Assembly (NCBI GenBank): GCA_016182105.1
Contig: JACOXZ010000011.1
Coordinates: forward strand, 1,218-65,217
Source: Candidatus Liptonbacteria bacterium
GTDB taxonomy: Bacteria > Patescibacteriota > Minisyncoccia > UBA6257 > 2-01-FULL-56-20
DNA length: 64,000 bases
Direction: 5' to 3'
Position numbers and translations under genes: made by a program. The notes beneath the pieces were generated by a model, which was not told the DNA's origin, did not search any database, and saw only the letters and a list, made by a program, of their open reading frames with translations. Shown here piece by piece: positions 787 to 63,103 of this stretch. Numbering within the stretch: position 1 is the stretch's first letter; each line of letters opens with the position of its first letter.

Positions 787-1083
787 TCACTTTCGTTTCG
801 GACTACCTTTTCGACCAGACAGAAAATCCTTCTCTAAAGCTACGGCAACTAACCGTTTATATGCAAATGCCTTACCAGAACCTGACTTAAGATATCGCTC
901 GAAGTCGCGTGCCTCTTTCTCCGTGGTAAATGCACTATACCAAATTAATTTCCAGGGCAGATGAGGTTTTGTGGATGGCACACTGCCCTCGCTGTGAAGC
1001 TTGAATCTAGCCCGAAGATCATTAGTGGATCCGAAATAAAATATGTGCGACTTCGAGCTGAGCAAAATGTATGTATAGTGCAT
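787..1083 (-). CDS. Stand-alone GIY-YIG nuclease family protein
   Basis: MHYTYILLS...FYFGSTNDLRARFKLH...EARDFERYLKSGSG matches small GIY-YIG proteins. Confidence 0.9.
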   Translation of the reverse strand: MHYTYILLSSKSHIFYFGSTNDLRARFKLHSEGSVPSTKPHLPWKLIWYSAFTTEKEARDFERYLKSGSGKAFAYKRLVAVALEKDFLSGRKGSPKRK

Positions 1084-5924: not shown

Positions 5925-6025
5925 TCCCGTTAGAAGCCGCGATCGCGTTGCTAAAACTCCAAATATCTATCAATGTACAGTCATTACAATGAACTCGCCT
6001 AGATCGCGATCTGCTTCTAACGGGA
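5925..6025. mobile_element. Family A inverted-repeat miniature element
   Basis: TCCCGTTAGAAGC...GCTTCTAACGGGA flanked by TGA on both sides; last A is the A of the next ATG. Confidence 0.85.
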
Positions 6026-10514: not shown

Positions 10515-10629
10515 TCCCGTTAGAAGCCGCGATCGCGTTGCAAATAAATTAAATATCAACCAAATGCGTAATCGTTACAATAAAATAAACCTGCAGACTT
10601 GCGCAAATCGCGATCTGCTTCTAACGGGA
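10515..10629. mobile_element. Family A inverted-repeat miniature element
   Basis: TCCCGTTAGAAGC...GCTTCTAACGGGA flanked by TGAA direct repeats within an ATGAA start. Confidence 0.88.
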
Positions 10630-19054: not shown

Positions 19055-20933
19055 AGCCAAAAATTTTACCGATTTCGAGGAGTCGTTAAATGGCGGCTCA
19101 CGCGAGGAAGTCATAGAGGTGCCCTTGAGCAGCCAGCCGCTTTTTTATACGGGCTTATTAATTTTTCTTTTTGCCGCGCTTGCCGTAGGCCGCGTTCTTT
19201 TCTTGGGTGTAGTCTCCGGCGAAATCTATAAAGCCAGGGCCGAGGCCAATTCTAGCGAGCTCGAGCGGCTTCAAGCGCCGAGGGGTCTCGTCTTCGCGAG
19301 AGGCGGAGAAGTTTTGGCAGAAAACCAGCCGGTTTTCCTGGCCGTCTTGAAGACCAGCGAATTTCTAAAAGACGAGTCTATCCAAGAAAAAACGCTTGCT
19401 TCAATCAAGGAGATTATGGGAATTGATAGAGAACTAGTCTGGAGTCTGATCAAAGAACGAGACCAAGAAAGAATAGGCGACCCAATTGTTCTTAGCGCCG
19501 ACCTAAGCCAAACTGAGCTAATTCAGCTTAAAAGCCTCAATTCCTTGTCCCTGGTCGTAGAGAGCGGTTTCAAGAGGAATTATCCGGACGGCCCAATTTT
19601 TTCTTCCATAATTGGCTATACCGGACTCCCTACCGCCCTAGATCTTAGAGAGAATGCCGAACTTACCGGCGTGGATTTTGTTGGCAAATCCGGCCTAGAG
19701 GCTTTTTACGATAAAGATCTCCGCGGAAAAAACGGATTTTTAGCGTATCTCCGCGATGCCAAAGGTGAAATCTTCGAAGAAAAAAAGGAGAGGCCAGTCG
19801 AGGCAGGAGCGGCTCTCAATTTAACAATTGACGCTGAATTTCAGCGCTATTTTTACCACAGGATGCAAGAGGGACTCACCTCATTAGGGAGAAACTCCGG
19901 CGTTGGTCTGGCGTTAAATCCGAGAAACGGCGAGGTTTTGGCCCTGATTAATTTACCGAGCTACGACCCCAATATTTTCTTGGCTCCAGAGAAAAACGAA
20001 GAGAGGTTGAAACTCTTGAATTCACCGGAGACGCCCCTGTTCAATCGGGCTATAAGCGGCACCTACAGCCCAGGTTCCACAATTAAGCCGCTCGTGGCTC
20101 TCGCGGCTTTGAGCGAAGGCGTGATCAACACCGAAAAACAAATTTATTCCCCAGGCTATCTTGAAATTCCGAATCCTTATGACCCCCAGAAACCCACTCT
20201 TTTCCTCGATTGGCGGCCCCAGGGCTGGGTGAATTTAGAGCGGGCCATTGCTCAGTCCTCGAACGTTTATTTCTACACTGTAGGCGGTGGCTTCGGCGAT
20301 ATTAAGGGGCTGGGGATCAAACGTTTAAACGACTGGTGGCAAAAATTTAATTTAGGAAAGCTCACTGGCATTGATTTACCTTGGGAGGCCAAGGGACTTT
20401 TGCCCACAGTCGAGGAAAAAGAAAAAAGAACCGGCACGCCCTGGCTTTTGGGCGATACTTATAACGTCTCAATTGGCCAGGGAGATCTCTTGCTTACTCC
20501 TCTTCAGATTTTAAACTACGTTGCCGCAATTGGAAACGGCGGGAAAATCTACCGGCCGTTTCTTGTCTCGAATTTCAAACACTCCGAAGTTGCTAGCGAC
20601 CTTTCTAATCTTCAAACTCAAATTTCTGAAGTGGAGAAAGGCATGAAGGCCGCAGTGAATTTTCCCTTAGGCACCGCCTACCTCCTTCACGATCTTCAGG
20701 TCTCGGTCGCTGCAAAAACCGGAACAGCCCAGATTTTGTCGAACACCCAGGCCAACGCCTTCTTTGTCGGTTTTATGCCGGCCGAGGATCCTGAAATTGT
20801 TATCCTGATTTTAGTTGAACGTTCGCGCGAAGGCAGTTTAAACACCGTGCCTATCGCTAAAGACGTGCTTAACTGGTACTACTTAAACCGGATCCCTCAC
20901 CCTTCAGAGATTTTATCTACGTCATCAAAATGA
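19038..20933 (+). CDS. mrdA: Penicillin-binding protein 2
   Basis: PGSTIKP, SSN and KTGTAQ motifs; last 13 or so codons and the stop come from a family C element. Confidence 0.9.
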   Translation: MPRKYKAKNFTDFEESLNGGSREEVIEVPLSSQPLFYTGLLIFLFAALAVGRVLFLGVVSGEIYKARAEANSSELERLQAPRGLVFARGGEVLAENQPVFLAVLKTSEFLKDESIQEKTLASIKEIMGIDRELVWSLIKERDQERIGDPIVLSADLSQTELIQLKSLNSLSLVVESGFKRNYPDGPIFSSIIGYTGLPTALDLRENAELTGVDFVGKSGLEAFYDKDLRGKNGFLAYLRDAKGEIFEEKKERPVEAGAALNLTIDAEFQRYFYHRMQEGLTSLGRNSGVGLALNPRNGEVLALINLPSYDPNIFLAPEKNEERLKLLNSPETPLFNRAISGTYSPGSTIKPLVALAALSEGVINTEKQIYSPGYLEIPNPYDPQKPTLFLDWRPQGWVNLERAIAQSSNVYFYTVGGGFGDIKGLGIKRLNDWWQKFNLGKLTGIDLPWEAKGLLPTVEEKEKRTGTPWLLGDTYNVSIGQGDLLLTPLQILNYVAAIGNGGKIYRPFLVSNFKHSEVASDLSNLQTQISEVEKGMKAAVNFPLGTAYLLHDLQVSVAAKTGTAQILSNTQANAFFVGFMPAEDPEIVILILVERSREGSLNTVPIAKDVLNWYYLNRIPHPSEILSTSSK

Positions 20934-21023
20934 GTACTACAGACAAGACGTTTCCTTTCAAAGTCGCTCGGCAAAAGAGATCACACCATGAAAAATCGTG
21001 CATGATCTCTGAATGGTGAGGGA
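20893..21023. mobile_element. Family C inverted-repeat miniature element
   Basis: TCCCTCACCCTTCAGAGAT...ATCTCTGAATGGTGAGGGA; homologous to the 34724 and 62974 copies; last A begins the next ATG. Confidence 0.85.
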
Positions 21024-34723: not shown

Positions 34724-34855
34724 CCCCCCCACTCTTCAGAGATTTTCTCTACGTCATCAAAATGAGTACTATAGACAAAATGTTTCATTTCAAGGCCGTT
34801 CGGCAGATGAGATTATGCTACGAAAAATCGTGCATGATCTCTGAAGAGTGAGGGA
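34724..34855. mobile_element. Family C inverted-repeat miniature element
   Basis: CACTCTTCAGAGAT...ATCTCTGAAGAGTG; flanked by TGA on both sides. Confidence 0.88.
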
Positions 34856-53225: not shown

Positions 53226-53341
53226 TCCCGTTAGAAGCCGCGATCGCTTTGGGTAATGCATAGTTGTTTGCCGTATGGATAGTCATTGTTATACATCGCT
53301 ATAGTCCACATATCACTGATCGCGATCTGTTTCTAACGGGA
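53226..53341. mobile_element. Family A element nested in a family B remnant
   Basis: TCCCGTTAGAAGC...TTCTAACGGGA flanked by CGTTG repeats; followed by ATCTTTCTAAGGTGCGGGG. Confidence 0.85.
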
Positions 53342-58502: not shown

Positions 58503-59018
58503 ATGCGTAGAAAGGATACTAGAAACAGGAGAGGTTTTACTCTGGTCGAGCTTATTCTTTATGTAAGCGTGTCCGCATTAGTGGCGCTTGCGGCAGCCGG
58601 GCTCATAGTTATCATTATTCAAGCTCGCGTTAAAAGCCAAACCGTTGCCGAAGTTGAGCAGGTTGGGAGCCATGTGCTGAATCTTATCACCCAAACCGCG
58701 AGAAACTCTCTTCGAATTAATTCACCCCTTCCCGGCGGCTCGAGCAGTGTTTTGTCCCTGGCTAATCAATCCAGTACCAAAAACCCTACTATTTTTGATG
58801 TTCAAAGCAGCACGATTCGAATTACAGAGGGCGCCTATCAGCCAGTGCCGCTTACCTCTTCCCGGCTTTTAGCTTCAAGTCTTTTGTTTCAAAATCTATC
58901 CCGAACCAACACCTCCGGCACCATAAGAATTCAATTTACTTTAACTCACCAAAATCCCGGCAGTCGAAACGAATATGATTACGTAAAAAATTTTTATGGT
59001 TCAGCAACAGTTAGATAG
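58503..59018 (+). CDS. Minor pilin
   Basis: RRG-FTLVELILY. Confidence 0.85.
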   Translation: MRRKDTRNRRGFTLVELILYVSVSALVALAAAGLIVIIIQARVKSQTVAEVEQVGSHVLNLITQTARNSLRINSPLPGGSSSVLSLANQSSTKNPTIFDVQSSTIRITEGAYQPVPLTSSRLLASSLLFQNLSRTNTSGTIRIQFTLTHQNPGSRNEYDYVKNFYGSATVR

Positions 59019-59087
59019 CTTTTAGCTGATAGCTTTTAGAAGTAAAATAACTAAAAGCTAAAAGCTGTAACCTAAAAGCTAGTAATT

Positions 59088-59456
59088 ATGTATATCGAAT
59101 CATTTAAACAATTGACAGTTTGGCAAAAATCGATCCAATTAGTGAAAGAAATTTATAGGGTGACAGACAAATTTCCTGCCTCGGAGATGTACGGCTTAGT
59201 AAGTCAGATGAGAAGAGCGGCAATATCAATTCCTTCAAATATTGCCGAGGGCAAAAAAAGGAAAACGAAGAAAGATTTTCTGCAATTTCTAAGAATAGCC
59301 GATGGTTCCGCCGCTGAGCTAGAGACCCAAATTATTATTGCAAAAGAATTATTTCCAAAATTAGACTTTTCTAAGACAGTATCATTACTAGAGGAGATCC
59401 AAAAAATGTTAATAACCATAATCAAAAAGTTTGAAGGAAATGGTCATGCTGACTAG
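59088..59456 (+). CDS. Four helix bundle protein (23S rRNA IVS protein-like family)
   Basis: SFKQLTVWQKS, FPASEMYGLVSQMRRAAISIPSNIAEG, FLRIADGSAAELETQ. Confidence 0.92.
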   Translation: MYIESFKQLTVWQKSIQLVKEIYRVTDKFPASEMYGLVSQMRRAAISIPSNIAEGKKRKTKKDFLQFLRIADGSAAELETQIIIAKELFPKLDFSKTVSLLEEIQKMLITIIKKFEGNGHAD

Positions 59457-59874
59457 CGGCCTAAAAGCTAAAAGCTATAAGCTAAAAGCTAAGGGTGGTT
59501 ACATCACGCTTTTAATGGTTATTATTGTGGGCGCGATAGGCGTCGCAACCGGCGTCTCTCTTCTTCTTTTAGGCGTCGGTTCATCTCGAAGCAGCTTATC
59601 GTTTGAGAAGTCGAATCAAGCCAAGGCCTTGTCGAATGCCTGCGCGGAGGCAGCACTTGATCAAATAAGAAATTCATCTGCCTTCTCCGGAAGCGCTGGA
59701 TTAACTTTCGGCCGTGGCAGCTGCAGCTATCAGGTTTTAAACTTAGGCGGCCAGAGTCGTTTAATTAACGCTTCAGGCACGGTGGATGAGGTCGTAAGAA
59801 AAATCAAAATAACCCTAAATCAAATCACGCCTAAGATTAACCTTACTTCCTGGCAAGAAGTTTCTGATTTTTAA
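59440..59874 (+). CDS. PilX-like minor pilin
   Basis: KGG-YITLLMVII, QAKALSNACAEAAL, SWQEV; start uncertain. Confidence 0.75.
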   Translation: MVMLTSGLKAKSYKLKAKGGYITLLMVIIVGAIGVATGVSLLLLGVGSSRSSLSFEKSNQAKALSNACAEAALDQIRNSSAFSGSAGLTFGRGSCSYQVLNLGGQSRLINASGTVDEVVRKIKITLNQITPKINLTSWQEVSDF

Positions 59875-59922
59875 TCCACAGAGAAAAATCAGTGAGTTAT
59901 GATATAATTTTTATAAGCCAGA

Positions 59923-60055
59923 CCCCCACACTAATCAGGACTTTGAGTTATGTTCTATGTGTATGTGTTGCGTAGCATGAAAGACAAGAAATTATATAAT
60001 ATAGGTTATACGAATAATCTTAACCGCAGGTTGATAGAACATATTAGTGTGGGGG
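59923..60055. mobile_element. Inverted-repeat element carrying a GIY-YIG 5' fragment
   Basis: Perfect 13 bp TIR CCCCCACACTAAT / ATTAGTGTGGGGG; 59950 onward reads MFYVYVLRSMKDKKLYNIGYTNNLNRRLIEH. Confidence 0.85.
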
Positions 60056-60083
60056 AAAGGTCGCGAGAATTTCAGATTCTAAA

Positions 60084-60557
60084 ATGATAAGTAATTTTTC
60101 TTCGAGACGCGGTTTTACGCTTTTGGAAATCCTGCTTGTAGTGGCTGCCCTGGGAATCCTGGCTGGCATTGTCATTTTGGCGATCAATCCCGGAAAACAG
60201 CTTGGCGACACAAGAAATGCTGCGAGGAAGGTTGACGTGAACACCATTATTAACGGCGTTTATCAGTATTCTCTTGACAATAACGGCAACCTGCCGTCCG
60301 GGCTTTCGACTTCAACTTGTTCGACAGCCACCAATAATATCTGTAAGACTTCAGTTGCAACCTCGAGCTGCACAGGCTTTGTTGACCTTTCGGTTTTGAC
60401 TCAAAACGAGAAATATCTTGTTTCTATTCCTATTGATCCCTCGATTTCGAGTGCCTCAACCGGCACTGGTTATTTCGTAAGAAAGACGGTGAACGGCCGA
60501 GTGGAGGTTTGCGCGCCAAACGCTGAACAAGGAGCCACTGTGAGCGTAATCCGTTGA
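60084..60557 (+). CDS. Type IV pilin (probable major pilin)
   Basis: RRG-FTLLEILLVVAALGILAGIVILAINP. Confidence 0.9.
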   Translation: MISNFSSRRGFTLLEILLVVAALGILAGIVILAINPGKQLGDTRNAARKVDVNTIINGVYQYSLDNNGNLPSGLSTSTCSTATNNICKTSVATSSCTGFVDLSVLTQNEKYLVSIPIDPSISSASTGTGYFVRKTVNGRVEVCAPNAEQGATVSVIR

Positions 60558-60563
60558 GAGGAG

Positions 60564-60680
60564 TCCCGTTAGAAGCAGATCGCGATCTGGGTAAGTCTGC
60601 AGTTCAATTTTATTCACTGTAATGACTATACACTGATAGATGTTGGATTTTTAGCAACGCGATCGCGGCTTCTAACGGGA
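60564..60680. mobile_element. Family A element, opposite orientation
   Basis: Reverse complement aligns with 5925-6025; last A begins the kinase ATG. Confidence 0.85.
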
Positions 60681-62973: not shown

Positions 62974-63103
62974 TCCCCCACCTTTCGGAGATTTCTCCCC
63001 GTCATCAAAACGAAGTTTGGACACAAAGCATTTGTTTTCAAGGTCGCCTTAGACTTGAGACCGTGCTTCAGAAAGAAGCGTATGATCTCTGAAAGGTGAG
63101 GGA
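62974..63103. mobile_element. Family C inverted-repeat miniature element
   Basis: TCCCCCACCTTTCGGAGAT...ATCTCTGAAAGGTGAGGGA flanked by TGA repeats inside the sod start ATGA. Confidence 0.85.

Follow-up and report, generated by a model that had tools for sequence, protein, structure and literature searches.

A 133-bp insert with perfect terminal inverted repeats (TIRs) encloses the N-terminus of a small GIY-YIG nuclease next to a pilin-like gene, in the stretch of 64,000 nucleotides analysed here (the window). Either a miniature element took up a piece of a host gene by chance, or the insert is what remains of a longer unit in which the nuclease belongs between the repeats. The preliminary description of this DNA had preferred the second answer and proposed that a stand-alone GIY-YIG protein drives such elements.

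The insert spans positions 59923-60055, with 13-bp arms reading CCCCCACACTAAT from 59923 and its reverse complement up to 60055. The left TIR (59923-59935, forward strand) aligns to the left end of full elements found elsewhere, the element end being its first C. A subterminal spacer between TIR and start codon (59936-59949, forward) is arranged as in these parent elements, by alignment with L133, L136, L137 and L134; its first 7 bases belong to what in the parent is the inner part of a TIR of ~20 bp. The next segment (59950-60042, forward) covers codons 1-31 of the GIY-YIG gene, which were identified by Pfam match and by alignment to the parent, and are joined directly to the right TIR (60043-60055, forward) via a deletion of ~165 bp. 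Translation continues through this TIR as a 45-aa read-through ORF (59950-60087, forward), of which residues 1-36 match the Pfam GIY-YIG model (E 2.6e-6, above cut-off). Its TGA overlaps the start (ATGA) of the host pilin-like gene (60084-60557, forward; N_methyl PF07963, with an N-methylation motif), which begins 28 bases past the element. The arms, the enclosed N-terminus and the overlap with the pilin ATG at 60084 were thus all as first described. Within the window the two-arm pattern is unique, and 100 dinucleotide shuffles did not produce it once.

The YIG motif of the insert reads LYNIG, the extra Asn being due to a polymorphic 3-base insertion (59996-59998, forward) recognised by comparing contig depths. 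In four groundwater runs of one study, possibly including the source sample, the depth on contigs without the insertion was 4.6/9.7, 32/45, 35/56 and 6.7/6.7. Since insertion-free contigs carry much or most of the depth, many cells have the canonical LYIG.

Several observations concern the surroundings of the insert. The word TGATATAAT at 59900-59908 resembles an extended -10 element and lies 14 bases before the insert; if it were the pilin promoter, the remnant would lie within the pilin leader. A promoter scan gave 2 weak sites against 1.2 expected, which is not above chance. Directly abutting the right end is AAAGGTCG (60056-60063), which is also seen at the left end of L133, L136 and L137, occurs 34 times in the host genome against 17.8 in shuffles and often stands 6-33 bases before an ATG in AT-rich leaders, possibly as a lineage-specific leader motif. 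Further upstream, a four-helix-bundle (23S_rRNA_IVP) gene at 59088-59456 is bracketed, within 59016-59491, by inverted arrays of a 7-base repeat (TAGCTTT / CTAAAAG), and similar arrays recur elsewhere in the window and the genome.

Parents of the insert were sought in GTDB contigs as CCCCACACTAA arms 223-283 bp apart, a gap tuned to the expected size. Twelve loci were found, mostly in Patescibacteria, and in eight of them a small GIY-YIG gene fills the space between the arms, as an intact ORF of 84-86 aa in seven and a broken one in the eighth; two of the eight (L009 and L011) represent the same site behind smpB. The other loci comprise three tandem short copies from one genome and one non-coding composite. 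The full-length GIY-YIG ORFs that the preliminary description had asked for between pairs of this TIR therefore exist, and the parent is a TIR-nuclease-TIR unit of 291-297 bp. An earlier scan for exact arms with a gap of 225-255 gave 0 of 301 genomes of the class, this gap being too short for the real parents. Larger cargo (300-1500 bp) between paired arms was not seen in the lists of inverted pairs, and two TIR patterns had no match in viral contigs.

The insert consists of the parent's first 120 bp followed by its last 13 bp, ~165 bp being gone after codon 31, and the first 120 bp align in register with L012 (77% nucleotide identity) and L133 (76%). Because TIR, spacer and gene start are shared in register with full elements, the insert reads as an internal deletion and not as a capture. 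We regard it as almost certainly an internal-deletion copy of a ~295-bp TIR-nuclease-TIR element, judging from these alignments. That a MITE took up a piece of an ordinary host GIY-YIG gene was rejected in view of the intact parents in register and appears very improbable, even though the TIR family can hold unrelated DNA. The preliminary description had named two findings that together would speak for such a capture, and they came out differently: full TIR-flanked genes do exist, while other copies of the TIR do hold unrelated DNA. With its 133 bp, 13-bp TIRs, a gene cut at codon 31 with loss of E62, and ends in common with a longer coding element, the insert has the make-up of a MITE and shows one route to the short copies of 60-190 bp.

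How general this route is can be judged from the host genome (588 kb, 94% complete). It contains 114 inverted pairs of the CCC..GGG type (36-450 bp), compared with 12-18 in shuffled sequence, and all four of its small GIY-YIG sequences lie within inverted arms, namely the remnant at 59923-60055, an intact gene on contig C25 between def and fmt, a pseudogene on C2 and the gene at 787-1083 of the window. A second case of parent and deletion product is provided by eight family-B minis (117-119 bp): their 5' ~105 bp and 3' 25 bp correspond to those of the full C25 element, and an internal inverted repeat marks the position of the break. The earlier view of the miniature elements as deletion derivatives of TIR-nuclease-TIR units is borne out by the eight parental loci out of twelve and by the alignment of the insert; it holds for the 133-bp copy and the eight family-B minis but not as a general rule, as most interiors bear no detectable likeness to the gene. 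Among short copies of this TIR family, gene likeness is clear in 2 of 20 and marginal in another 2, and in a second set it is clear in 0 of 19. Nor is there a GIY-YIG frame in any of the five other exact arm pairs of the host genome.

Seven further short copies lie in the window, with no strand assigned. One has the inverted arms of a sister TIR family, TCCCGTTAGAAG (60564-60680). Three belong to the TCCCGTTAGA family, at 5925-6025 with a TGA duplication, at 10515-10629 with a TGAA duplication and at 53226-53341 with a 5-bp duplication. The TCCCTCAC family is represented at 20893-21023 and 34725-34855, both with inverted arms, and at 62974-63103 with a TGA duplication. Elsewhere in the host genome, one TCCCGTTAGA mini is nested inside another at C20:11715-11931 and C20:33677-33861, and GC-rich composites of ~270 bp, made of inverted repeats with nested arms and lacking a clear gene, occur at C19:44007-44278, C19:46090-46366, C17:5808-6075 and C12:7253-7523. 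In five other genomes (G358, G316, G345, G343 and G357), the short copies L259-L273 have kept a length of 128-139 bp with almost fully diverged interiors, and many of them share subterminal CGAAG/CTTCG words. That TIR ends can carry other cargo is seen at L229:49-145 (in G365:C3), where a complete tRNA-Arg(CCG) gene lies between CCCCACACTAAT TIRs.

Flanking sequences suggest that the element family is mobile. With ends set one base outside CCC, a few of them off by one base and some rows near-duplicates, target duplications of at least 3 bp (3-6 bp) flank 31 of 76 full elements, against a mean of 12.2 and a maximum of 21 when flanks were permuted within families (2000 rounds). The corresponding figure for minis of the host genome with duplications of 3-6 bp is 42 of 82 (permutation mean 20.8, maximum 31). 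Two further sets of minis have duplications in 9 of 20 and 10 of 19 cases, and four of the five other exact copies of this TIR in the host genome are flanked by a TCAA duplication. Duplications in full elements are mostly 4 bp long (23 of 31) and follow a YNNR consensus with varied words, including CACG, GTAG, CTTG, CACA and TGTG; a perfect duplication is missing in 45 of the 76. Unlike flank pairs (TTTA/TGAA or TTCA/TAAA) recur in 9 of the 76 (L010, L017, L063, L151, L154, L160, L195, L204 and L207) and could stem from blunt insertion or from a donor-site 4-mer brought along with the element. The copy at 59923-60055 itself has no target duplication, its flanks being CAGA and AAAG.

Comparison between genomes points in the same direction. 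A single TTCA in G303 corresponds to TTCA-element-TTCA at a start codon in its congener G360, a clean empty site. The genes of L118 and L126 are 95% identical and lie at unrelated sites of one genome (G318), with TGAA repeated at both, and the L104 gene is 89.5% identical to the C25 gene of the host genome, the two being in different genera and having unrelated flanks. Relatives without the element were also seen at the L017 and L126 sites, where the junctions are too diverged for a duplication to be read. For the insert at 59923-60055, no orthologous empty site turned up when the pilin junction was searched at the DNA level in 40 relatives, and none of the matches listed for contigs of the four runs contained a joint skipping the element. 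Many copies are located where a stop and a start codon overlap; there the final A or G of the element, together with the duplicated TG, restores the start codon. This siting may reflect target preference or selection.

The association between TIR and gene is a general one. Metagenome loci were picked by the L012 protein alone, and among 69 distinct complete genes scored from the best 80 of 447 loci, 50 have flanking inverted repeats scoring at least 12, against 1 of 200 random windows; no TIR was detectable in the remaining 19 close relatives. The preliminary description had suggested testing such an association statistically. The best 110 of 228 Pfam-matched loci by E-value, drawn from 50 host-family genomes, yielded 112 complete small GIY-YIG ORFs. 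Of these, 31 reached the inverted-repeat mark; the proportion was 10 of 15 in the group sharing this element's pattern and 3 of 34 in a pattern group consisting mostly of UPF0213-like proteins. CCCC(A/G)CAC, TCCCGTTAGA, TCCCTCAC, CCCCGTAGG and the Ssn-type hairpins each go with their own protein C-terminus. On a quick tree of 187 proteins, built from few columns with weak deep support and rough labels, TIR labels change 40 times against a shuffled mean of 86.7, and none of 200 shuffles was as low. Linked inheritance alone also predicts such clustering.

The protein between the repeats has a conserved active site. All 76 proteins compared carry Y5, Y16, G18, R26, H30, Y48, E50, R61, E62, L65 and K66 without exception. 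Of ten pairs, nine gave dN/dS values of 0.04-0.18 and one was saturated. The parent protein has the residue set of the GIY-YIG superfamily (Tyr, Tyr-x-Gly, Arg, His, Tyr and Glu) in the three-strand/helix fold, and we take its active-site residues to have the roles of their counterparts in I-TevI and Slx1. Its structural model (pLDDT 90.9) has UPF0213 (1ZG2) and Slx1 domains as fold neighbours, and no NCBIfam model scored above cut-off. The parent nuclease is predicted to form a homodimer, with a score of 0.77 against 0.00 for the best of three controls, full (100%) agreement of contacts between runs and pLDDT 90, using its own alignment; among structures already solved, 20 of 30 dimers and 1 of 23 monomers attained this mark. 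The predicted dimer face consists of strand 45-54 and the C-terminal helix 78-84. The remnant keeps Y5, Y16, G18, R26 and H30 (parent numbering) and lacks Y48, E50, R61, E62 and the predicted dimer face. As both this face and E62 are missing, it would be unable to make an active enzyme.

If the remnant cannot supply its own enzyme, another copy would have to. The preliminary description had put forward the full small GIY-YIG gene at 787-1083 (reverse strand; Pfam E 1.2e-15) as a trans-acting enzyme. This gene belongs to another clade and has inverted arms of its own (828-845 / 1090-1107), the second of which (828-845) falls inside the coding sequence, and its arm motif occurs only twice in the genome. 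Of 30 residues compared, its protein shares 13 with the remnant, while cognate proteins share 20-24. With another clade and other repeats, it is a poor candidate for acting in trans and was rejected as the helper. The unit around it (767-1124) has as its boundaries TATCCTTC/GAAGGATA and a 14-bp direct repeat (767 and 1111) matching the tRNA-Gln 3' end, and resembles a tiny tRNA-integrated element. An intact gene cognate to the TIR of the insert was not found in the host genome, which is 94% complete (best match 47%).

Taken together, these features suggest that the insert is a deletion remnant of a ~295-bp element and that the 84-86-residue Slx1-like GIY-YIG protein of that element is likely the mobilising enzyme. 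The nuclease dimer would bind both TIRs, either as paired ends or as an extruded stem, and the predicted pairing via strand 45-54 and the C-terminal helix would provide two active sites. The dimer would introduce nicks at the ends of the element and a cut, staggered by 4 bases, in a YNNR target, after which host polymerase and ligase could fill and seal the gaps, leaving the target duplication. The variable length of the duplications and the recurring unlike flank pairs hint that the strands are cut independently or that a 4-mer is carried from the donor. Since the remnant keeps both ends and has no active enzyme (no E62), it would have moved only in trans, as a MITE. Against such a role, GIY-YIG enzymes are to our knowledge hydrolytic and perform no strand transfer.

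A different division of labour would leave the mobile unit real and make the GIY-YIG protein a passenger, for example with a homing-like or addiction function, while another transposase acts in trans. In favour of this explanation, DDE elements usually have TIRs ending in CC and duplications of 4 bp, and the TIRs here also carry unrelated DNA, both the tRNA gene and unrecognisable interiors. Likewise, the cognate nuclease is absent in four of seven arm-rich genomes, and contigs with insertion sequences are often dropped from MAGs; the cognate gene is nevertheless present in three of these seven against 2 of 44 other genomes (Fisher p 0.015, the genomes being kin and not independent). Against a passenger role, Y1_Tnp, DDE_Tnp_1, DDE_Tnp_1_4 and DDE_Tnp_IS1595, the four profiles searched, were not found in the 94%-complete host genome with its ~100 such elements. 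The only ORF of the parent element is the GIY-YIG gene by Pfam, sequence and fold searches, with no RNase H-fold DDE transposase, and GIY-YIG genes are the sole protein genes seen between these arms. Moreover, several TIR types each have their own nuclease clade, and in one family the TIR encodes the last residues of the protein. A passenger role is therefore considered unlikely, and from the sequence comparisons the GIY-YIG nuclease itself probably moves the element.

The repeats might also have spread without transposition in the strict sense, with the protein acting like Ssn as a sequence-specific ssDNA nuclease that cuts beside the repeat, for example in incoming DNA, and with break-induced copying or recombination multiplying the repeats. 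As far as the consulted part of the Ssn study goes, each Ssn gene lies between copies of its own repeat, and ssDNA is cut at a distance of a few bases on the upstream side of that repeat (PMC11893778). The same set of Patescibacteria-like host-family genomes also contains Ssn-type GIY-YIG genes, with hairpin repeats of the form TGTCAT(T)CCC (L040, L058, L071, L074 and L080). The remnant as ssDNA folds into a long stem (z -4.7), and the duplication length varies (0, 3, 4 or 5) with recurrence of unlike YNNR flank pairs, as from independent nicks. The CCCCCACACTAAT arms, on the other hand, pair only with each other and form no self-hairpin; as a single TIR pair they delimit a unit whose size is fixed. 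Discrete insertions are indicated by the clean empty site and by exact 4-bp duplications that differ in sequence, and on the tree the proteins are placed apart from the SRM-flanked ones. We consider this explanation improbable, more so than a passenger role, and retain the nuclease as the putative mobilising enzyme. More broadly, we lean towards a Patescibacteria class of insertion sequences of <300 bp whose transposase would be a homodimeric GIY-YIG protein of 85 residues, each clade reading its own TIR, producing a 4-bp duplication and giving rise to dozens to hundreds of MITEs per genome.

If this is correct, the elements would represent a new transposase chemistry and be among the smallest autonomous DNA transposons, and the 133-bp copy would capture a step from autonomous element to MITE. 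It would explain the ~100 short inverted-repeat inserts at gene junctions in reduced Patescibacteria genomes without a detected transposase, and provide a function for thousands of 'hypothetical' stand-alone GIY-YIG genes. The 85-residue protein would be a very small candidate for a TIR-specific integrase, and a 300-bp construct would allow the idea of Ssn mobility to be tested directly.

The insertion sequences known from prokaryotes rely on DDE, HUH, DEDD, serine or tyrosine enzymes. Classical DDE-type insertion sequences and their MITEs share with the present elements the TIRs, the target duplication, the intergenic sites and the coexistence of long coding and short non-coding copies, according to the part of a MITE review that was consulted (PMC10969869), in which 'nuclease' does not occur as a word start. 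The elements here differ in having no DDE gene and a long form of 276-388 bp that encodes an 84-86-aa GIY-YIG protein. They have the TIRs, a duplication of mostly 4 bp and one clean empty site as expected of insertion sequences, with 45 of 76 lacking a perfect duplication. REPtrons and TIRtrons (RAYT/TIRYT) and REPINs are similar in that a small enzyme gene lies between dispersed inverted repeats specific to the enzyme, but those enzymes are HUH/Y1 transposases, as far as the consulted part of Di Nocera (2013, PMC3733652) goes, and 'GIY' has no occurrence in that paper. No Y1_Tnp gene, the mark of IS200/IS605, REPIN/RAYT and TIRtron systems, was found in the host genome or between the arms. 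Stand-alone Slx1-like and UPF0213 proteins have the same minimal GIY-YIG fold and are the best sequence and fold matches (PDB 1ZG2, 6SEH and 7WME). The former are predicted repair enzymes in the consulted part of Dunin-Horkawicz (2006, PMC1564403), where 'inverted' has no occurrence, and the UPF0213-like group of the host family differs in that flanking repeats are seen in only 3 of 34.

The closest resemblance is to Ssn/NTS. A single-domain GIY-YIG gene of ~90 aa is there flanked on both sides by its own repeat, many gene-less copies also exist, and the authors noted the insertion-sequence architecture of NTS-ssnA-NTS, by the consulted part of Chenal et al. (2025, PMC11893778). A small GIY-YIG gene between copies of its own repeat and the presence of gene-less copies are thus common to both systems. 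Ssn proteins are of cd10448, their repeats are self-hairpins and they have been shown to restrict transforming ssDNA, with no mobility shown in that part of the study; the main text of PMC11893778 has no occurrence of cd10449, MITE or Patescibacteria. The nucleases here fall in another clade, the TIR-flanked proteins standing apart from SRM-flanked ones on the quick tree with its weak deep support, and their elements have one TIR pair with CCC/GGG ends, such as CCCCCACACTAAT, instead of self-hairpin SRMs of the CGTCATTCCC... type, together with 4-bp duplications and an empty site. The full-text literature, leaving aside subscription papers, ISfinder and supplements, yielded no description of TIR-bounded GIY-YIG elements with target duplications. 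The nuclease-only mobile element family is thus apparently undescribed, and its nearest known counterpart is Ssn/NTS.
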